Assembly: GCA_041493035.1 (NCBI GenBank)
Contig: JBGPYB010000004.1
Coordinates: 1,465 to 65,464 of the forward strand
Direction of reading: 5' to 3'
DNA: 64,000 nucleotides
Origin: Vicinamibacteria bacterium
GTDB lineage: Bacteria; Acidobacteriota; Vicinamibacteria; Fen-336
Part shown: positions 5,421-58,901 of the stretch, in pieces
Position numbering within the stretch: the stretch's first letter is position 1
Layout: each line of letters begins with the position of its first letter
Program-made: the position numbers and the translations under genes
Notes under the pieces: model-generated
What the model was told of the DNA's origin: nothing
Databases searched by the model: none
The model's input: the letters and a program-made list of their open reading frames with translations, nothing else

Positions 5421-6200
5421 CTACCGGCCGACGACGCCTTCGAGGGGCGACGAAGCGGAAGCGTACATCTTCCGCGGGATCCGCCCTGCCAGGAACGCGT
5501 CGCGCCCCGCTTCGACGGCCTTGCGCATCGCCCGTGCCATCAGGACGGGGTCCGCCGCAAGGGCGATGGCCGTGTTCATCAGGACGCCGTCGGCGCCGAG
5601 CTCCATGGCGATGGCGGCGTCCGAGGCGGTGCCGACACCTGCGTCGACGATGACGGGGACGCCCACCGCCTCCTTGATGAGCTGGATGTTGATCCGGTTC
5701 TGGATCCCGAGGCCGCTGCCGATGGGCGCCCCGAGAGGCATCACCGACGCGGCGCCGGCATCCTCGAGCTTCTTGGCGATCACGACGTCGTCGGTGGTGT
5801 AGGGGAGGACGACGAAGCCCTCCTTGACCAGGATCCGCGTCGCGGCCAGCAGCCCCTCGACGTCGGGGTAGAGCGTCTTCTGGTCGCCGATCACCTCGAG
5901 CTTGACCCAGTGGCTGAGGCCCGCCTCACGGCCGAGGCGCGCGGTGCGCACGGCCTCGTCGGCGGTGTAGCAGGCGGCGGTGTTGGGGAGGATGAACATC
6001 CGGTCTGCGTCGATGTGGTCGAGGAGATTCTCCGGGCCGCGGTTGTTCAGGTCGACGCGGCGCACGGCCACCGTGACCATGTCGGCTCCCGAGGCCTCGT
6101 GGGCCTCGCGCATCACGCGGAAGCTCGGGTACTTGCCGGTGCCGACGATCAGGCGCGAGCGAAGCTCGCGGCCCGCGACGACGAGCGAGTCGCTTGCCAT
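5421..6200 (-). CDS. thiG: Thiazole synthase ThiG
   Basis: Full-length similarity ([44 protein letters not shown]). ATG at 6200 gives a ThiG-typical length. Confidence 0.9.
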
Positions 6201-6210
6201 GGGCTCGATG

Positions 6211-6435
6211 TTAGCACGCACCACCCCCGACGAAGGTCACGATCTCCAGGCGATCACCCGGGCTCAACCGCCGCGCAGGGTGTTCGGCGCGGGGGACGAC
6301 TTCGAGGTTCATTTCCACCGCGACTCGCCGTGGGTCGAGGGAAAGGCGACTCAGGAGATCGGCGATCGTGGAGCCTTCTGGGACCGACACACCATCGCCG
6401 TTGACCTGCACCTCGAACCCGGCTGGCCGCGACAA
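6211..6435 (-). CDS. thiS: Sulfur carrier protein ThiS with 2-residue C-terminal extension (…FVGGG-AC)
   Basis: 74 aa beta-grasp-size protein immediately upstream of thiG. Ends VTFVGGGAC instead of terminating at Gly-Gly. Confidence 0.7.
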
Positions 6436-6440
6436 ACGGG

Positions 6441-6818
6441 TTACTTGACGGCGGCGCGGGCCGCGAGATAGGCGAGGACGATCTCGTCCAGGGAGAGGTC
6501 CTCCATCACGGTCCGGTCACCTGCGGAGTCGAAGCGTCCCCGCTTGACCTCCATGATCATCCCCTTGTGCTGGTCCTCCATCAGCTTCGTGATGGCGGCC
6601 TCGTCGGAGTGGTCCTTGACCAGCTCCGCGTAGGGAAGGCGTCGCGAACCGAGGATCTCTCCACCCTTGTAGATGAGGGTCTCGATGAGGGGATTGGCTG
6701 TTCCTTTGTCCTCGGTCTGGACGTGGTAGACAACACCGCGGAACTTGACGTCGGTGTTGAAGCCGGTGATCACGAATGAATTCTGGGTTCCTCCGTCGCG
6801 GGTTGTCAAGCGGTCCAT
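6441..6818 (-). CDS. Hypothetical protein (conserved [10 protein letters not shown] motif), 5 nt upstream of thiS
   Basis: ORF with plausible ATG at 6818 ([10 protein letters not shown]...). Spacing suggests co-transcription with thiSG. No family assignable by eye. Confidence 0.4.
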
Positions 6819-6964
6819 AATGCCGGCGGAGGAAGCGTCTTGGACGACGAGGACAAGGTGCCGCTCTTCGGGACGTGGCGGCGGATCTACGCCGCGGTCG
6901 TCCTCTGCGCCCTCGCCTCGATGGGGCTCATCGCACTCTTCTCCCACTGGGACTACTGAGAGCC

Positions 6965-8638
6965 TTGTCCTCCCTCGATTGGGCCGTCCTTCTCGTCTAT
7001 CTCGTCGCCATCGTCTCCTTCGGCGTCTTCATGGGGCGAGGCAACAAGAAGATTTCCGACTTCTTTCTGGCCGGCCGGGAGATGCGGTGGTGGGCGGTGG
7101 GCCTGTCCGTCATGGCGACGCAGATCAGCGCCATCACCTTCGTGGGGACCACCGGGCAGGCCTACACCGACGGGATGCGCTTTCTCGTCGTCTACTTCGC
7201 ACTCCCCTTCGCCATGGTGATCCTCTGCGTCACCCTCGTGCCATTCTTCTACCGCGCCGGCGTCTTCACGGCGTACGAATACCTCGAGAAGCGCTTCGAC
7301 GGTCGTACGCGAACCCTCACGAGCCTCCTGTTCCTGATCTCGCGCGGTCTCTCGGTGGGCGTCACCCTCTACGCGCCGTCACTCGTGCTGTCGGTCATTC
7401 TTGGATGGAGTGAAGGGGCCACAATCCTGCTCATGGCGGGGACCACGATCGTCTACGTGATCTACGGCGGCAACAAGTCCGTCATCTGGACCGACGTGGT
7501 GCAGATGACGTTCATCTGGTTCGGGATCTTCCTCTGCGTCGGCATCGCCGTCAGCCATCTCCCCACGGGGGTCGGCCTGCGGGATGCGCTGGCCCTCGCC
7601 CAGACGACCGGGCGCCTGAGGATCTTCGACCTGTCGCCGAGTCTCACGAAGCCCTACACCTTCTGGAGCGGCCTCATCGGGGGGCTGTTCCTGATGCTCT
7701 CGTACTTCGGCTGCGACCAGAGCCAGGTGCAGCGCTATCTTTCCGGGAGCAGCCTGACCCAGAGCCGGCTCGCGCTGCTGTTCAGCGCATTTCTCAAGGT
7801 GCCGATGCAGTTCCTCATCCTGCTCACGGGGATCCTCGTTTTCGTCTTCTACCACTTTCAGCCACCGCCGCTCCTGTGGAATCCTGTCGCCCTCGCCCGT
7901 TTCGAGCGGGAAGCACCCAAGAACGACGTCGTGCGTCTCGAGGAACGCTACGCGAAGGCGGTGACCGAGCGGCGCGTCGCTGCCGAGGCCTATCTCGCCG
8001 CCCACCGCCGCAGCGGCTCGACAGGAGCCGAGGAATACCTGGGAGCGAGCCGGGAGGTGGACGCCGCGCGCAAGGAGGCCGCGGGGATCATGGGGCGGCT
8101 CGACGGAGCCGTCTACCGCGACACCAACTACATCTTCCCGACCTACATCGTCACGCAGCTTCCACGCGGCCTCGTCGGCCTGGTCATCGCCGTCATCTTC
8201 GCGGCAGCGATGTCGGCTCTTTCGGGGGAGCTGAGCGCCCTCGCGACGGCCTCGATGGTGGATTTCTACCGCCGCTTCGTGCGCACCGAGGGAGGAGACG
8301 CGCAGGAGCTCCTGGCGTCCCGCGTCCTCACCGGCGTGTGGGGCGGCTTCGCTTGCCTTGTCGCCCTGGAGGCGGGCCGCCTGGGCTCGGCTATCGAAGT
8401 GGTCAACAAGTTCGGATCGTACTTCTACGGCTCGATCCTCGGCGTCTTCGGCCTCGCCGTGTTGACGCCGACGGCCTCCGCAAGAGGGGCCTTCTATGGC
8501 CTGATCGTAGGCGTCGCGACGGTGGTCGCGGTCGCCACGCTCACCCCGATTCACTTCCTCTGGTACAACGTCGTCGGCGTCGTGACCGTCTTCGCCGTCG
8601 GCCTCGCGATCACCGCCCTCGCTCGGCCGAGGACCTAG
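6965..8638 (+). CDS. Sodium:solute symporter (SSS) family transporter with about 110-aa hydrophilic insertion
   Basis: Multiple TM helices and SSS-like motifs (GGNKSVIWTDVVQ, FGCDQSQVQRYL). Start is ambiguous: TTG at 6965 just before TM1, or GTG at 6875. Confidence 0.65.
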   Translation: MSSLDWAVLLVYLVAIVSFGVFMGRGNKKISDFFLAGREMRWWAVGLSVMATQISAITFVGTTGQAYTDGMRFLVVYFALPFAMVILCVTLVPFFYRAGVFTAYEYLEKRFDGRTRTLTSLLFLISRGLSVGVTLYAPSLVLSVILGWSEGATILLMAGTTIVYVIYGGNKSVIWTDVVQMTFIWFGIFLCVGIAVSHLPTGVGLRDALALAQTTGRLRIFDLSPSLTKPYTFWSGLIGGLFLMLSYFGCDQSQVQRYLSGSSLTQSRLALLFSAFLKVPMQFLILLTGILVFVFYHFQPPPLLWNPVALARFEREAPKNDVVRLEERYAKAVTERRVAAEAYLAAHRRSGSTGAEEYLGASREVDAARKEAAGIMGRLDGAVYRDTNYIFPTYIVTQLPRGLVGLVIAVIFAAAMSALSGELSALATASMVDFYRRFVRTEGGDAQELLASRVLTGVWGGFACLVALEAGRLGSAIEVVNKFGSYFYGSILGVFGLAVLTPTASARGAFYGLIVGVATVVAVATLTPIHFLWYNVVGVVTVFAVGLAITALARPRT

Positions 8639-35241: not shown

Positions 35242-37029
35242 GTGCTCAACGAGAAGCTGGATTCGCTACCGACGCGTTCCGGCGTCTATCTCTTCAAGGA
35301 CGCCGAGGGTCGGATCCTCTATGTGGGCAAGGCCCGCGTCCTGCGCGACCGCGTGCGCTCCTATTTCCAGGCCTCCCGCAGCTGGGATCCTCACAAGGGA
35401 GCGATGGTCTCCGAGATCGCCGATCTCGATCTCGTGGTCACCGACACCGAGATGGAAGCCCTCGCTCTCGAGAACAACCTCATCAAGCGCCACAAGCCGC
35501 GCTACAACGTTCTTCTTCGCGACGACAAGAATCACCCTTTCCTCAAGCTGACCCTGGCCGAGGAGTACCCGCGTCTCCACATCGTGCGACGGCCTGCCGA
35601 AGACAAGAACGCCTACGGCGGCCCCTACATCCCGGCGAGCCTCGGCCGGAAGACGGCGTCCCTGGTCCACAAGATCTTCGGCGTAAGGTCCTGCAAGGAA
35701 GCCCTCGACGGCCATCGACCGCGCCCGTGCCTCCAGCACCAGATCCATCGCTGCATCGCTCCGTGTGTGGTCGAGGTTTGCTCTCTCGACCGCTACCGGC
35801 AGGCCTGCGACGACGCGCGCCTCTTTCTCGAGGGGAGGACCGATGAGGTTTTGCGGCGCATGCGCGCGCAGATGGCCGCTGCCGCCGTAGACGAACGCTT
35901 CGAGGAGGCGGCGAGCCTGCGCGACCAGATCCGGACGCTCGAGCGCCTGGAGACTCCCCAGAAAATCACCACCACCGATATCGAAGAGCGGGACCTCGTT
36001 GCGGCGCACGTCGAAGGGGAAAGAGCGGCGCTCCAGATCTTTTCCGTCCGCGACGGGAAAGTCGTCGCGCGGGAGGGATACCTCCTCGACCACCTCGCCG
36101 AGCCCGAGGCCGTCGTCTCGTCGGCCTTGCAGCAGTACTATGCGCAGGGACGCTACGTCCCTCGCGAGATCCTCGTCCCGGAGGAAGTCCCCGACCGGGA
36201 GCTGCTCGAGGCGTGGCTCTCGACGCGTCGGGGCAGCGCCGTGCGCATCCGCGTGCCGCAACGGGGCGAGAAAGTCCGCCTCCTCGAGCTGGTGATCAGC
36301 AACGCGCGCCTGGCTTTCGATCTCGAATGGAAGCATCCGCGCCGCCAGTCCCAGGAGATTCTCCGTGCCCTCCGCGACCTCCTCGATCTCGAGATGGAGC
36401 CGCGCCGTATCGAATGCTTCGACATCTCCAACATCCAGGGCTCCGACATCGTGGCCTCGATGGTCGCCTTTGTGGACGGGGCCCCGAAGAAGTCCGACTA
36501 CCGCAAGTTCCGGATCAAGGACGTCGTGGGTGCCCCCGATGACTTCGCGTCGATGCGCGAGGTCGTGGGCCGGCGCTATCGCCGTCTGCTCGAGGAAGGG
36601 AAGGACCTTCCCGATCTCGTCCTCATCGATGGGGGCAAGGGGCAGCTCGGCGCGGCCGTCGAAGCGTTGGAGACCCTCGGCCTCGGCGAACAGCCCGTTG
36701 CGAGCCTCGCCAAGCGCGAGGAGCTGATCTTCGTGCGTGGGCGTCAGGAGCCGATCGCGCTCCCGCGGGCATCACCGATCCTTCAGCTCGTCCAACGCGT
36801 TCGGGACGAGGCGCATCGTTTCGCCGTGGGCTTCCACCGGCAAGCCCGGAAAGCACGGACCCTCCAGTCAGAGCTGGACGACATCCCGGGCGTGGGGCCC
36901 ACGAAGCGCCGCAAGCTCCTGTCGCGCTTCGGTTCGGTCCGAGGCGTCCGCGGCGCGAGCGAGGTGGAGCTGGCCTCAGCCGTTGGCAAAGCCACGGCGG
37001 CGCGCGTCCGCGGCCACTTCGATCGCTGA
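35242..37029 (+). CDS. uvrC: Excinuclease ABC subunit C
   Basis: GIY-YIG (GVYLFKD...LYVGKA), Cys-rich region, UvrBC-interaction and C-terminal RNase H-like/HhH domains. 595 aa. Confidence 0.9.
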   Translation: MLNEKLDSLPTRSGVYLFKDAEGRILYVGKARVLRDRVRSYFQASRSWDPHKGAMVSEIADLDLVVTDTEMEALALENNLIKRHKPRYNVLLRDDKNHPFLKLTLAEEYPRLHIVRRPAEDKNAYGGPYIPASLGRKTASLVHKIFGVRSCKEALDGHRPRPCLQHQIHRCIAPCVVEVCSLDRYRQACDDARLFLEGRTDEVLRRMRAQMAAAAVDERFEEAASLRDQIRTLERLETPQKITTTDIEERDLVAAHVEGERAALQIFSVRDGKVVAREGYLLDHLAEPEAVVSSALQQYYAQGRYVPREILVPEEVPDRELLEAWLSTRRGSAVRIRVPQRGEKVRLLELVISNARLAFDLEWKHPRRQSQEILRALRDLLDLEMEPRRIECFDISNIQGSDIVASMVAFVDGAPKKSDYRKFRIKDVVGAPDDFASMREVVGRRYRRLLEEGKDLPDLVLIDGGKGQLGAAVEALETLGLGEQPVASLAKREELIFVRGRQEPIALPRASPILQLVQRVRDEAHRFAVGFHRQARKARTLQSELDDIPGVGPTKRRKLLSRFGSVRGVRGASEVELASAVGKATAARVRGHFDR

Positions 37030-54342: not shown

Positions 54343-55815
54343 CTACCACGCGCCGGGATGGCCCCCGGCGATCTCGACCACGGTGAACGGAGCCGACGCC
54401 AGCGCGATATCGCTATCGTCCTTCAGCAGATAGGCCCTGTAGTCACCGGCGGGAAGGGGCCAGCCCCCGCCTTCGGTCGCCGCATCGAGCGTCGCGGTTC
54501 CTTCGATGGCGGTGTCCAGGTGGCGCCACAGGAGAGAGCTTTCCCTCTCGGGGCTAGCGGTGGCCTTGTACACACCCACCCAGTCCCAGCGATTCCCCGG
54601 TGCGCGACGCCAGGTCACGACGATCGGCTCACCGGAGGCGTAGCGCGACTGGGATAGAGTGATCTCCGGCTTCGCGTCCCTGGTCTGGACCCAGAACGGG
54701 AACGCGGCGAGGACGCCTCCTTGGGCGTCGCGAAGCGCCGCCCTGTAGGCTCCTGGCTTCATGTCGGCGGTTCGGAAGCCCAGGGTACCGTCGGTCGGCG
54801 CGTTCTGTCCGGTCGGCTGGATTGGAGGCGGCGCGAGTTTCGAGCCGCCGTCGGCAGGCAGGACCGCCACGCTCTCGCCAGTCTTTCCCAGCGCGTGGAA
54901 CCTCACCTCGAAGGCCTCTCCGACGGTGACCAGCCGCGGCTGAACCGAGACCAGCACGGGAGTGGGCGCCGGCGTGACCTCGAACGTCGATACGACGCCG
55001 CGATGATCCGAAGGCCATGGAGGCGCCACGGCGATATCCACACCGGGCCGGCCGCTCTCGCCGACGATGCGGCTGGCCTTCGCCACCGCGGGTCCCGCGG
55101 CAAAGACGAAGTCGATGCGGTCCTCGGGATCCTGGGGTCCCGGGTTCCAGCCGGGGAGCTGCGGTCTTCGCGCCCACCACGTCAGTCCCGGATACGTGAG
55201 AGGGTCGGGATGGACCTCGCGATAGGAGTCGCGAAAGCCCGCGCTCTCCACGGCCTCGGTCTCGGGCCACCGCAGCGGAAACCGGAGCTGCGGCCTGCGA
55301 CCCACCATGGCCGCGGTCCAGTCGCGGTGGGAGGGGACGTTGAAATCGCCTGTCAGGAAGACCGGGATCCCGCGTCGCGCAAGGTCCTGCAAGACCCCGA
55401 GTTGAGAAACGACATGCGGGACTCGCATTCGCCTCTCGAGTACCAGCGCCTCCTCGGCTGAGGCACCCTTGGCGATGACTTCAGGGCCGTACGGGTCCGA
55501 CGGCAGATGAACGTTGGCCATGGCAACGACCCGACCCGGGGACGTTTCGACGAAGACGTAGATGCCCTGTCCCGCCGGCGGATCCAGGATCCGATACTTC
55601 GACACGACTTGCAGCCGCGCGCTGGCGTAGGGCCAGCCGAGAGCCACCGCGAGGCGCTCGACCTGTCCCTCCCCCTCCTCGACGCCGACCACGTCGGCGC
55701 CGCTCAGGCGCACCGCCTCGACGACCTTGCCAAAGTCGACGCCTGTGCCCCCGTACTCGACGTTGAAGACCATGACGTTGAGGGTGATGGTGGCTGCGGC
55801 GATGGGCATGAGCAT
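54343..55815 (-). CDS. Endonuclease/exonuclease/phosphatase (EEP) family protein with C-terminal beta-rich domain
   Basis: EEP motifs ([32 protein letters not shown]). Confidence 0.55.
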
Positions 55816-55907: not shown

Positions 55908-56396
55908 ATGGACGTTATCAAGAAAAAGCTCGACGATGAGATCCGGGCGCTGGAGTACGAACTGAGGGTCCAGCTCCCCAGGGAAATCCTCAAGGCCAGG
56001 GAGCACGGCGACCTCCGCGAGAACGCCGAGTACAAGTCGGCCAAGGAGCGCCAGAAGTTCCTCGAGGCGCGGGTCTCGCAGCTCCACCAGCGCCTCGCGG
56101 CCCTGTCCCTCGTGAACCTCGACAGGATCCCTCACGACAAGGTGGGACTCGGCTCCACCGTCAGCCTGCGCCACACCGGCAACGGCGAGGAGATCGTCTA
56201 CCAGATCGTGACGACCGAAGAGTCGGATCCGCCGACGGGTCGCATCTCTCCCTCGTCGCCCATCGGCAAGTGCCTCCTCAATCATGGAGAAGGGGACACC
56301 GTCGAGGTCAAGGTCCCGTCGGGGACCAAGGAATACGAGATCATCAAGCTCGTGACCATGCACGATCAGGTCAAGGACACACCCGCGGAGACGTGA
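55908..56396 (+). CDS. greA: Transcription elongation factor GreA
   Basis: Coiled-coil N-domain with DLRENAEYKSAKERQ, C-terminal FKBP-like domain. 162 aa. Confidence 0.9.
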   Translation: MDVIKKKLDDEIRALEYELRVQLPREILKAREHGDLRENAEYKSAKERQKFLEARVSQLHQRLAALSLVNLDRIPHDKVGLGSTVSLRHTGNGEEIVYQIVTTEESDPPTGRISPSSPIGKCLLNHGEGDTVEVKVPSGTKEYEIIKLVTMHDQVKDTPAET

Positions 56397-56412: not shown

Positions 56413-57420
56413 GTGACCTCGCTGCGCATGACGTCGGTCCCACTCTCCGGGGACGTCGCCCAGGCGCTCGCAGCGGTCCCCGCCGTCCCCGGCGTGGGGC
56501 AAATCGTCGGCCCAGACGGAAGCAACCTCGTGATCGGCCGCGGCGCCCATCTGCGGCGCTGGGCCGCCTCGCATCTTGGGGCCGGCAAGCCGCCTCGTCC
56601 CGGCATTCGTCCGCCCACGAATCTGGCACCCATCGCCACGGCGATCGCGTTTGCCGAGACGACGTCCGCCTTCCACCAGCGTCTCGTCTACGAGCGGTTG
56701 ATGGCTCGCTACGTGCCGGCCTCGGCGCGACGCGACCTCAAGCCTCCGGTCTACCTTCACCTGGATCCTGCCGAGCGCTTTCCCCGGATCGTGGTGCGGT
56801 CGTCGAACGATGGCCGAGAGGGCCTCTACGGCCCGTTCCGCGATCGTCGCACGGCCGAGGCGGCCCGCCAGCGTCTCCACAAGCTCTTTCCCCTGCGCCC
56901 CTGCGACTATGTCTTCGAGCCGGACCCGAACCTTGCTCTCGGACAGGGCTGCGTCTACGCGCAGGTCAGGACCTGCGCTGCGCCCTGCTTGTCGCGGACC
57001 TCCGAAGAGGCGTATCGGGAGCTTGCGTCGGAGACGGCCGCCCTCCTGTCCCGAGTCTCGGCGCGGCTGCCTGAGGTCGAGGACGTCGTCCCCCCGTGGG
57101 TCGCGGCGTTTCAGGGGAGTGCCGGGCTCGTGGCCGAGGCTGGCACCCGCGGGATCGAGCTTTACCCGATACGCGAGGGGACGGTTCTCGACGAGAGCTG
57201 CGTTCGGGTGGGCGCGGACGAGCCATTGGGCGATGCGCTCGCGATCCTGCGATGGACGCCGGTCGCCGGCGGTGCGCCGCCCGACGACGCTCCCTGGCTC
57301 TCCGCATGGCTTCACGCTCCCCGGCGGACGGGGGTCTTTGTTACGGTCGATCTGCCTGCATCGGGGGCGGCTCTTCGCGAGCGACTGCGTGATAAGTTAG
57401 GGCGTCCCGAGGATCGATGA
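56413..57420 (+). CDS. Degenerate UvrC N-terminal-region paralog (GIY-YIG-like plus Cys-rich region), catalytic Tyr residues replaced
   Basis: Collinear with the N-terminal about 200 aa of the window's own uvrC: PGVGQIV.. vs SGVYLFK.., NLVIGRGAHLRRW vs ILYVGKARVLRDRV, KLFPLRPC...CVYAQVRTCAAPC vs KIFGVRSC...CLQHQIHRCIAPC. Start GTG 56413 or ATG 56428. Confidence 0.6.
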   Translation: MTSLRMTSVPLSGDVAQALAAVPAVPGVGQIVGPDGSNLVIGRGAHLRRWAASHLGAGKPPRPGIRPPTNLAPIATAIAFAETTSAFHQRLVYERLMARYVPASARRDLKPPVYLHLDPAERFPRIVVRSSNDGREGLYGPFRDRRTAEAARQRLHKLFPLRPCDYVFEPDPNLALGQGCVYAQVRTCAAPCLSRTSEEAYRELASETAALLSRVSARLPEVEDVVPPWVAAFQGSAGLVAEAGTRGIELYPIREGTVLDESCVRVGADEPLGDALAILRWTPVAGGAPPDDAPWLSAWLHAPRRTGVFVTVDLPASGAALRERLRDKLGRPEDR

Positions 57421-58901
57421 AAGAGTACTCGCCGAAAAGGCGCACCGCGCTGGTCCTCACGGGGAGTGGCACGTCGGGGGCGTATCACGCCGGGGCACTG
57501 AAGGCCCTCGACGAAAGCGGCGTCAAGATCGACCTAATCGTCGGTTCCGGCATCGGTTCGGTGGCCGCGGCCTTCGGCGCGGTGGCCGGGGGCGCGCGCC
57601 TCTATGGACGCGGTGGATTCTGGGACGGCGCCCGGTGGAGCTCTTTCTATCGGCTGCGGCCGTTTCTGCGTTCTGTGCTTGGCCTCCTCGCCGCAATCCT
57701 GGGCGTGTTCCTGGTTCCCGCGACGGTCGCGCTCGTGGTCGGCCTTCTGTCGCCGCTGCTGCTCATCGTTTGGCTCGTTTGGTCGCGGGTTCACGCGGAC
57801 TTTCCGAGTTGGGTGGGTCTCGACCCAGGGCTGCTCCCGACGGTCTACGTCGCCGCCCTCGCCATCCCCGCCTTCGCTCTCGGCCTCCTCGTCGTGGTCT
57901 TTCTGTGTCGCCTCGCCTACCGCGATCGGAAGAGGATGGGCGAGGCCTTCGAGGCGGTGCTCGACGCGCGCCGTGGCTCCGAGCGTCTCTGCCGCGCTCT
58001 CTGGGAGGTGGCTCGTGGCCCTGCGGTCAGCGCCGCGCCCCCTTCGGAAACGGAGCTCGGGAAGCGCTTTGTCGCCCTCGCCTCGGAGAACCTCGGGCAG
58101 CCGGGTTTCAGGGAGCTGATCCTTCGGACCGCGGACTTGGACACAGGCAGCTCGCTCCCCTTCGTCCTCTTGCAGGATGCTCACCGTGCCGCGTTTGCCG
58201 TGGCCCGCTCTCGCGGAGCACGCTCGCGCCTCGACGGCCTTCCGGGCGCCGTCGACCTCCGCGCCTCAGGGTACGACGTCCTTCTCTTCGACGCGGTGGT
58301 GACGGGTCTCCTGCCACCCCTGGCCGCTCCGGTGCGTAGGGTCGCCTTCCCTCGCGGTGGCCTGTACGCGGGCGAGGTTCACCGGCTCGCCGACGCGAGC
58401 GTCGTGGCGGGCTCCGGCATCTCCGAAGCCCTGGCCGCGGGCGCCGACCAGGTGATCCTGGTCTCAGGCGTTCCGCAGATCGCCGCCGCTCCTCCGCGCC
58501 GGCGTGGGCCGCGCGCCCTGGCCGACGGGATCCTCGCGACCCTCGAGCGTCAAGCGGTGGATCGCGACGTGGACGGTGCGGAACGGGTCAACCGCATGGT
58601 CGAGACGCTGGGACATCGCACGGAAGACGGCGGGCGTGCGTGGCAGGACCCGGCCACGGGACGCCTCTACCGCGACTTCGGCCTCTACGTCATCCGCCCC
58701 GAGAGGCGCGCCTTGGGTCCGCTCGAGTTCGATGGCGCGCAGGATCCGACCAGCGAGGTCCTGGAGACGCCGGCGGACCTCGTCGAGCAGGGATACCGGG
58801 ATGCGTACCGCTTGTTCGTCGAGCCTGTCGTCGGCGGCGCGCCCGAGCCGCGCCCTTCGGGTTCGCAGGCCGAGGAAGAGGGGCAACCCATCGGCCTCTG
58901 A
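57417..58901 (+). CDS. Patatin-like phospholipase domain membrane protein (atypical VGSGI nucleophile elbow)
   Basis: N-terminal LVLTGSGTSGAYHAGAL oxyanion region. IVGSGIGSVAAAFGA in place of the GxSxG elbow. Three or four TM helices mid-protein. ATG overlaps the upstream stop (ATGA). Confidence 0.55.
   Translation: MKEYSPKRRTALVLTGSGTSGAYHAGALKALDESGVKIDLIVGSGIGSVAAAFGAVAGGARLYGRGGFWDGARWSSFYRLRPFLRSVLGLLAAILGVFLVPATVALVVGLLSPLLLIVWLVWSRVHADFPSWVGLDPGLLPTVYVAALAIPAFALGLLVVVFLCRLAYRDRKRMGEAFEAVLDARRGSERLCRALWEVARGPAVSAAPPSETELGKRFVALASENLGQPGFRELILRTADLDTGSSLPFVLLQDAHRAAFAVARSRGARSRLDGLPGAVDLRASGYDVLLFDAVVTGLLPPLAAPVRRVAFPRGGLYAGEVHRLADASVVAGSGISEALAAGADQVILVSGVPQIAAAPPRRRGPRALADGILATLERQAVDRDVDGAERVNRMVETLGHRTEDGGRAWQDPATGRLYRDFGLYVIRPERRALGPLEFDGAQDPTSEVLETPADLVEQGYRDAYRLFVEPVVGGAPEPRPSGSQAEEEGQPIGL

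Follow-up and report, generated by a model that had tools for sequence, protein, structure and literature searches.

What would a bacterium that already encodes a complete UvrC do with a second protein that resembles only the front part of UvrC and appears to have lost its active site? This question is raised by a stretch of 64,000 nucleotides from a soil Vicinamibacteria bacterium (GenBank assembly GCA_041493035.1, contig JBGPYB010000004.1), which as a whole we call the window. An earlier note, written from the sequence alone, had picked out in it a genuine uvrC and a second gene resembling the UvrC N-terminal region or a Cho-like standalone module, which we call X, as we do its product. Both descriptions hold. 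X is a true homolog of the N-terminal ~350 residues of UvrC and a real, conserved gene; its alignments point to a pseudo-nuclease that selection has nevertheless maintained. The two genes are:

35242 to 37029, plus strand: genuine uvrC, with the full domain set by Pfam (GIY-YIG, UVR at 3.5e-7, UvrC_RNaseH, UvrC_RNaseH_dom and HHH_5)
56413 to 57420, plus strand: gene X, a putative UvrC-N/Cho-like pseudo-nuclease of 335 aa with a GTG start, from the list of open reading frames

X is homologous to the N-terminal part of UvrC

BLASTP aligns X with the window's own UvrC over 206 residues at 23% identity (E 2e-9). Among the NCBIfam models, X matches best to the Cho-like half of the DEDD-exonuclease fusions (NF005907, E 1.4e-24, profile positions 226-415 of 584), then to several UvrC models (best 7.6e-14) and then to E. 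coli-type Cho (NF007833, 4.4e-5, residues 17-203 only), all with scores far under the full-length model cutoffs. When an alignment of the X family (n=59) was compared with one of UvrC (n=18) by hhalign, X 18-326 corresponded to UvrC 5-356 with a probability of 99.8% and an E-value of 4.6e-30. The similarity is real by all three measures, which settles the concern that it might be spurious low-complexity matching. Pfam returned no match in a local scan of X; precomputed annotations give it a single Pfam label, PF27096 (UvrC_M), which is present on all homolog clusters (at least 877). A PDB sequence search with X as query gave a chance antibody match only.

NCBI calls the start of X at an ATG at 56428 (P0001, 330 aa). 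The GTG start gives an N-terminus that agrees with orthologs such as P0121, and the choice of start has no effect on the other results.

X had been described as collinear only with the GIY-YIG and Cys-rich regions of UvrC. Both regions do align, but the collinearity continues as far as UvrC residue ~356; the UVR hairpin is missing from it, and the C-terminal part is weakly supported when taken alone. X ends at residue 335, and both the RNase H-type (EndoV-like) 5' endonuclease and the (HhH)2 domain are absent (no Pfam match to X; the alignment to UvrC stops at 356). Judged from these alignments, X is a standalone UvrC N-terminal module in the Cho-like layout: a GIY-YIG domain, four cysteines and a C-terminal domain, without the EndoV-HhH part.

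Catalytic residues of the GIY-YIG domain are replaced

We counted residues at the catalytic positions in an alignment of 171 X family sequences, ~150 of which cover each N-terminal column, with Thermotoga maritima UvrC numbering taken from a PDB alignment.

GIY tyrosine (T. maritima UvrC Y19): G29 in X; in the family G 111, A 31, V 4, L 2, I 1, K 1, Tyr 0 of 150
YIG tyrosine (Y29): V40 in X; in the family V 78, L 45, I 13, M 8, T 5, S 2, H 1, Tyr 0 of 152
Lysine (K32): R43 in X; mostly R in the family
Catalytic arginine (R39): W50 in X; in the family W 148, F 4, with BLAST, MAFFT and hhalign in agreement
Tyrosine (Y43): H54 in X; H, Q, R or N in the family
Metal-binding glutamate (E76): Y93 in X by MAFFT and hhalign; in the family Y 92, F 60, C 3
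Asparagine (N88): deleted in X within a two-residue deletion ('PRYN' against 'PA--'); A, L or R in the column of another alignment

The 'GVG' (G29) and 'LVIG' (V40) of X occupy the exact positions of GVY and LYVG in UvrC. The earlier note had read these as replacements of both GIY-YIG tyrosines that leave X catalytically compromised, and the family bears this out: none of the ~150 orthologs retains tyrosine at either position, the arginine has become Trp or Phe, and the asparagine is deleted. Two arginines of X, R48 and R49, lie one to two residues ahead of the catalytic-Arg position W50. The bona fide UvrC and Cho-like proteins among the next-best database matches all carry Y, Y, K, R, E and N at these positions. 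So does the UvrC of the window, whose product aligns to the UvrC structures 1yd6 and 1ycz and whose catalytic residues (Y16, Y27, K30, R37, E77 and N89) are intact and fall in invariant columns of the UvrC alignment.

According to PMC3045582 the GIY tyrosine is conserved and acts as the general base, and the E72A substitution in the N-terminal half of Deinococcus radiodurans UvrC (UvrC-N) left the protein completely inactive (PMC10085695). We infer that X is a pseudo-nuclease, unable to incise DNA by the GIY-YIG mechanism.

The fold is retained and the UvrB-docking hairpin is lost

X can be divided into three regions:

56452 to 56724, plus strand: degenerate GIY-YIG-fold domain, about residues 14-104, from Foldseek and hhalign (E 1.6e-10 for the N-terminal 110 residues against UvrC)
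56725 to 57084, plus strand: middle region, residues 105-224, with an RRDLK linker, a three-stranded beta motif and two helices around a Cys-rich loop (hhalign E 1e-23 against UvrC 101-208)
57085 to 57417, plus strand: C-terminal domain, residues 225-335, beta-beta-beta-alpha-alpha-beta-alpha, with invariant D292, W295 and W299 ('DDxPWLxxWL')

An AlphaFold2 (AF2) model built from the family alignment had a mean predicted local distance difference test score (pLDDT) of 90.4 and a predicted template-modelling score (pTM) of 0.88, with confidence falling only at residues 161-200, the cysteine loop, which is expected of a model that contains no metal. Residues 11-110 were modelled at pLDDT >94. 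When the model was searched against the PDB with Foldseek, the top matches were UvrC GIY-YIG crystal structures (1yd6, 1ycz and mutants), with a template-modelling (TM) score normalised to the target of 0.66-0.73, a root-mean-square deviation of 2.8-4.0 A and a probability of 1.00; the full model matched nothing outside this domain. X is thus predicted, with good confidence in the model, to keep the GIY-YIG alpha/beta fold. Pfam GIY-YIG matched 0 of 59 family members at E<=1.

The middle region of the model has strands at 113-116, 127-130 and 138-142 and helices at 145-158 and 198-213 on either side of the cysteine loop, in agreement with the 'beta-sheet motif' and helices alpha5 and alpha6 described for D. 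radiodurans UvrC (PMC10085695). After about residue 215 the UVR hairpin is deleted: hhalign opens a gap opposite UvrC ~201-236 (helices alpha7-alpha8), and the model has only a four-residue helix (220-223) in its place. The Pfam UVR model likewise matched 0 of 59 members at E<=1. X has lost the hairpin by which UvrC docks on UvrB.

The C-terminal domain is modelled confidently on its own (pLDDT 89). In hhalign, the last 111 residues of X alone matched UvrC weakly (E 0.017), with the best alignment at the collinear UvrC 261-357; they matched the C-terminal domain of the DEDD-Cho-like fusions at E 1.3e-4 and a probability of 54%, and these fusions are themselves collinear with UvrC 8-347. Foldseek found nothing significant for this domain in the PDB (best E 0.09, ATP-citrate lyase and actin, at low TM scores). 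It is probably a reduced counterpart of the Cho-like C-terminal domain and the UvrC RNase H1 domain, an assignment that is weakly supported.

X retains its cysteines and a basic face under purifying selection

Two further elements of X are conserved across the family:

56902 to 56988, plus strand: four-cysteine motif, putative Fe-S ligands, C164-x15-C180-x3-Q184-x3-C188-x3-C192 (RPC...GC...TCAAPC)
56575 to 56625: family-specific loop, residues 55-71, LGxGxPxRxGxRPPTDL, with invariant G56, R66, P67 and L71

The cysteines of the motif are kept in 166-168 of ~170 members and Q184 in 168 of 171. The UvrC consensus CX6-14CX3H/QX3CX3C is the proposed site of the UvrC Fe-S cluster (PMC10085695), and the motif of X fits it except that the first spacer is one residue longer. 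The cluster had been reported as kept in the form 'CxxxC...CxxPC'; the four cysteines are indeed conserved, but the pattern is C164-x15-C180-x7-C188-x3-C192. Through these cysteines X would still bind an Fe-S cluster.

On the former active-site face, X has a new set of invariant or near-invariant residues: R48, R49, W50, Q89, R90, E94 and R95. The N-terminal domain has an isoelectric point of 11.6 and a net charge of +8. For comparison, D. radiodurans UvrC-N binds double-stranded DNA with a dissociation constant of 0.4 uM (PMC10085695). [quoted passage not shown]

Pairwise ratios of nonsynonymous to synonymous substitution rates (dN/dS) between X orthologs were 0.18-0.27 for the whole gene; for the dead GIY-YIG-like domain they were 0.12-0.26, and selection there is no weaker than elsewhere. 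The family alignment (n=59) contains 31 invariant and ~45 near-invariant columns. Both the protein and its surface are being maintained, under purifying selection.

X belongs to a conserved gene string in Vicinamibacteria

In a 90%-cluster database we found at least 877 clusters related to X. The top 120 show 55-100% identity; only a few of them are given an organism name, and these are from Acidobacteria/Vicinamibacteria. An exhaustive search of 50% representatives with X gave ~48 representatives beyond E 1e-30, followed by a gap and then by ordinary UvrC and Cho-like proteins at E ~1e-16. Among GTDB species genomes there are 52 X loci, all in Acidobacteriota/Vicinamibacteria metagenome-assembled genomes (MAGs), one of which is labelled Hyphomicrobium and is probably mis-binned. 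X is specific to Vicinamibacteria-type Acidobacteriota, and every known member comes from uncultured MAGs.

The gene neighbourhood is essentially invariant. Minus-strand rarA and a spoU-type methyltransferase gene are followed by greA, X and a patatin-like gene (Pat), after which there is usually a Cys/Met-metabolism pyridoxal phosphate enzyme and then a small membrane protein. The genes and junction next to X are:

55908 to 56396, plus strand: greA, with Pfam GreA_GreB_N and GreA_GreB, ending 16 nt upstream of X
57417 to 58901, plus strand: Pat, a membrane patatin-like protein of 494 aa, with a Pfam Patatin match at E 1e-7 (above the cutoff) over residues 12-58
57417 to 57420, plus strand: ATGA stop-start overlap of X and Pat, the TGA of X (57418-57420) lying over the ATG of Pat (57417)

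Wherever a locus extends far enough upstream, greA lies ahead of X, with a median gap of 9 nt and 4-nt overlaps in seven loci. Pat is adjacent downstream in 40 of 45 related loci, the median gap being -4 nt. The earlier note had proposed that X is translationally coupled to Pat through the ATGA; this overlap is real, and it recurs in 28 of the 45. A terminator scan of the window found no terminator-like site between the genes of the greA-X-Pat string, and scans of its 54-61 kb region for Rfam families, sigma-70 promoters and terminators gave nothing informative.

Five loci from long-read MAGs (L003, L027, L028, L030 and L032) were treated as outliers in these spacing statistics. In them greA, X, Pat and neighbouring genes are fragmented or appear frameshifted (split GDC-P, short CGS), and 'gaps' are negative by hundreds of nucleotides, which is probably due to assembly errors rather than biology.

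Like X, Pat appears to be degenerate. Its Pfam match covers 50 of 191 profile positions, and the patatin fold seems to be interrupted by a hydrophobic insertion, with hydrophobic segments at about residues 80-165. Aligned to PlpD (5fqu), the nucleophile elbow GTSMG is GSGIG in Pat, with Gly45 at the Ser position, and the oxyanion motif SGGAARG is TGSGTSG, with the Arg lost. Gly45 is invariant in 39 orthologs. Pat is thus probably a pseudo-enzyme as well, judging from these motifs, and it has the same Vicinamibacteria-type distribution as X.

Relation of X to known UvrC and Cho proteins

X resembles UvrC in its collinearity, its GIY-YIG fold, its three-stranded beta motif with flanking helices and its CX(n)CX3QX3CX3C motif; its C-terminal domain probably stands at the position of RNase H1 and shares an 'L..WL...R.G' motif with it. 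Unlike UvrC, it has a loop of its own at 55-71, its catalytic GIY-YIG residues appear to be replaced, and it lacks the UVR helices, the RNase H2 endonuclease and (HhH)2. Its C-terminal domain, of four strands, is smaller than that of UvrC and shows only weak similarity to it.

X is built like Cho and the Cho-like proteins (NF005907/PRK07883, the 'Cho-like+Exo' type of PMC1564403): it consists of the N-terminal module of UvrC by itself and has no EndoV/RNase H2-HhH half. Its C-terminal domain is most similar to that of the DEDD-Cho-like fusions. E. coli Cho, too, has no UVR motif (PMC1564403). However, Y, Y, K, R, E and N are all present in Cho and the Cho-like proteins, which are active 3' nucleases, whereas X appears to have none of these residues, and the exonuclease domain of the DEDD-Cho-like fusions is also missing from X. 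X is not an E. coli-type Cho. UvrC and Cho relatives have been classified by domain variants of active nucleases (PMC1564403), and PMC10085695 cites five Cho classes. Our literature search returned no description of catalytically dead UvrC or Cho homologs or of the X family, and no paper linking Vicinamibacteria with UvrC.

The closest matches of X outside its own family (E ~1e-16 to 1e-13) include two groups of UvrC-N-like proteins, some of them annotated 'excinuclease ABC subunit C'. Group B consists of Terriglobia proteins, such as WP_124847423.1 of Acidipila sp. EB88 (P0185/P0271), which has that annotation; group C is found on contigs with an Hc1 histone-like neighbour (Planctomycete/Chlamydia-like). 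Contig look-ups by exact sequence returned nothing for P0185 or for P0001. Both groups resemble X in having UvrC_M as their only precomputed Pfam label, and they have lost the Glu and Asn together with some or all of the Tyr and Arg residues. They differ from X in being longer (375-470 aa), in mostly having a UVR motif, and in their context, following pmbA/tldD or a fabA-like gene; group B, moreover, keeps the YIG Tyr and the Arg. In a neighbour-joining tree, X is monophyletic (100%) on a separate long branch and is not grouped with B or C, which join each other at 72%. This tree is crude, too much so to place the origin of X in a UvrC or a Cho-like ancestor. Catalytic loss in a UvrC-N-like scaffold thus seems to be recurrent, in the X family, group B and group C. 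Degenerate genes with UvrC_M only lie at 6001-7332 in loci L056 and L057, 6001-7128 in L058 and 6001-7275 in L059.

Dead partners of nucleases are well known elsewhere in DNA repair: ERCC1 with XPF and EME1 with MUS81 keep the fold, have lost the catalytic residues and are maintained by selection. By analogy, X may be a protein of this kind, a selected paralog of a repair nuclease without its catalytic residues. Their nuclease fold, ERCC4, is unrelated to GIY-YIG.

What X may do in the cell

We propose that X is a Vicinamibacteria-type paralog of the N-terminal half of UvrC, Cho-like in layout, that has turned into a pseudo-nuclease. It would act as a non-catalytic binder or scaffold through its remodelled and very basic former active-site face, with nucleic acid or another anionic molecule as the most likely ligand. 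It would be co-transcribed with greA and would work together with the translationally coupled membrane pseudo-patatin, the two being made stoichiometrically. Candidate processes include regulation of excision repair as an accessory factor, redox or iron sensing with the membrane protein, a membrane-associated role, and a factor linked to RNA polymerase. Overall, we consider it fairly probable that X is a conserved pseudo-nuclease that serves as a scaffold for an Fe-S cluster and for nucleic acid and is expressed together with GreA and the pseudo-patatin.

Several points weigh against this proposal. The register of the glutamate helix is unsettled: an invariant glutamate, E94, lies one residue past the catalytic-Glu position, and BLAST places Q89 there. 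We favour the MAFFT/hhalign register, in which E76 is replaced, because an invariant Pro follows the glutamate helix in both families; as far as the alignments tell, the canonical GIY-YIG mechanism is unavailable to X even if E94 is equivalent to E76. The conserved cysteines, our one argument for Fe-S binding, would fit a structural Zn site equally well, and DNA binding is suggested by charge and ancestry. The assignment of the C-terminal domain is weak, given the hhalign E-values of 0.017 and 1.3e-4 and no PDB fold match. Finally, the genes of the string lie close together throughout, other neighbours being 16-21 nt apart, and the string is syntenic across one bacterial class, so that the linkage to greA and Pat may reflect shared ancestry and not shared function; the two most divergent X members (L048 and L051) do not have Pat downstream.

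A first alternative is that X, like ERCC1 or EME1, is a non-catalytic regulator or partner in nucleotide excision repair (NER), pairing with the active paralog UvrC via the central region or occupying UvrB-DNA pre-incision complexes as a non-cutting protein, whereby it would modulate repair. In favour of this, E. coli Cho acts on UvrB-DNA complexes although it has no UVR motif, as Moolenaar et al. reportedly found in 2002. The genome also encodes a genuine UvrC, and X retains the Fe-S module and the basic N-terminal domain. It also shares with UvrC the central region, described as the dimerisation and UvrB-binding region (PMC10085695). However, X has no UVR hairpin, through which UvrC is known to contact UvrB, and it is not linked to uvrA, uvrB or uvrC: uvrC lies 19 kb off, and it is greA and the patatin-like gene that are conserved next to X. 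Such a partnership is suggested by analogy, and we consider it unlikely, if still worth serious attention.

X might instead work outside DNA metabolism, as a soluble Fe-S subunit (redox- or iron-sensing) of a membrane complex with the pseudo-patatin, its former phosphodiester-binding cleft now taking another anionic ligand, for example a lipid head group or a nucleotide. The frequency of the 4-nt overlap and of the adjacency of Pat fits this idea, as do the equally narrow taxonomic range of the two proteins, the absence of catalytic residues from both, and the remodelling of the cleft by the new conserved loop and Trp50. Against it, Pat is not next door in some X lineages (L042, L048 and L051), and tight spacing is general in the greA-X-Pat gene string. 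We regard a role of this kind as distinctly doubtful.

It could also be that X is still an active endonuclease with a non-canonical site, made up of E94 as metal ligand with R48, R49 and R95, and serves like Cho as an alternative 3'-incision enzyme. The invariant E94-R95 pair does lie beside the canonical Glu position, R48 and R49 are near-invariant on the 'arginine helix', and the degenerate domain is under strong purifying selection. GIY-YIG motifs are also known to vary, the YIG Tyr being Lys in Hpy188I and the Asn being missing from Slx1 (PMC3045582, PMC1564403). But in 142 of 150 members the GIY Tyr, the general base, has become Gly or Ala, which leaves no side chain to replace it; the YIG Tyr has given way to hydrophobic residues and the catalytic Arg to Trp; and neither a Pfam GIY-YIG match nor the UvrB-docking motif is present. 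Retained nuclease activity is therefore very improbable.

That X is a decaying, functionless remnant of a duplicated uvrC or cho, as its lack of catalytic residues and of a UVR motif and its faster evolution than its neighbours (45-60% identity against ~73% for GreA and ~80% for RarA at the same loci) might suggest, is effectively refuted by dN/dS of ~0.2 in every domain, the many conserved columns, the confident fold prediction, and a reading frame that is intact in nearly all 52 species-level genomes, with fragmented matches in a few long-read MAG loci; we reject a pseudogene or relic on the strength of dN/dS and conservation.

[quoted passage not shown] The Fe-S cluster and the remodelled cleft would sense redox or DNA/RNA state and signal to the membrane or to RNA polymerase. 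This is a long shot in so specific a form. If it were true, X would be a natural separation-of-function variant, in which the Fe-S/central region of UvrC has a role independent of incision. What the Fe-S cluster, the beta motif and the RNase H1 domain do in UvrC has been named as an open question (PMC10085695). X keeps the four cysteines and the beta motif and has dropped the catalytic and UvrB-docking parts, and so it offers a natural case for studying this module alone. The recurrent catalytic loss suggests a non-catalytic use of the UvrC-N scaffold that has so far gone undescribed. There is also a consequence for annotation: members of the X family and of degenerate families like it carry the label 'hypothetical protein' or 'excinuclease ABC subunit C', of which the latter wrongly implies a second NER nuclease.

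Additional features of the locus

We also considered a defence system and rejected it: PADLOC models gave no match for X, Pat or the downstream transmembrane protein, and the locus is syntenic in the core genome. In locus L051 (6850-8256), X is followed after 7 nt by a gene for a 468-aa response regulator that combines two receiver domains with a DUF4388/PATAN-like region at its C-terminus. In the window, a gene of the Exo_endo_phos family (490 aa; 54343-55815, minus strand) stands between the spoU-type methyltransferase gene and greA. It occurs only here and in the closest relative (L003/L004), is missing from the other ~50 syntenic loci, and looks like a recent insertion.

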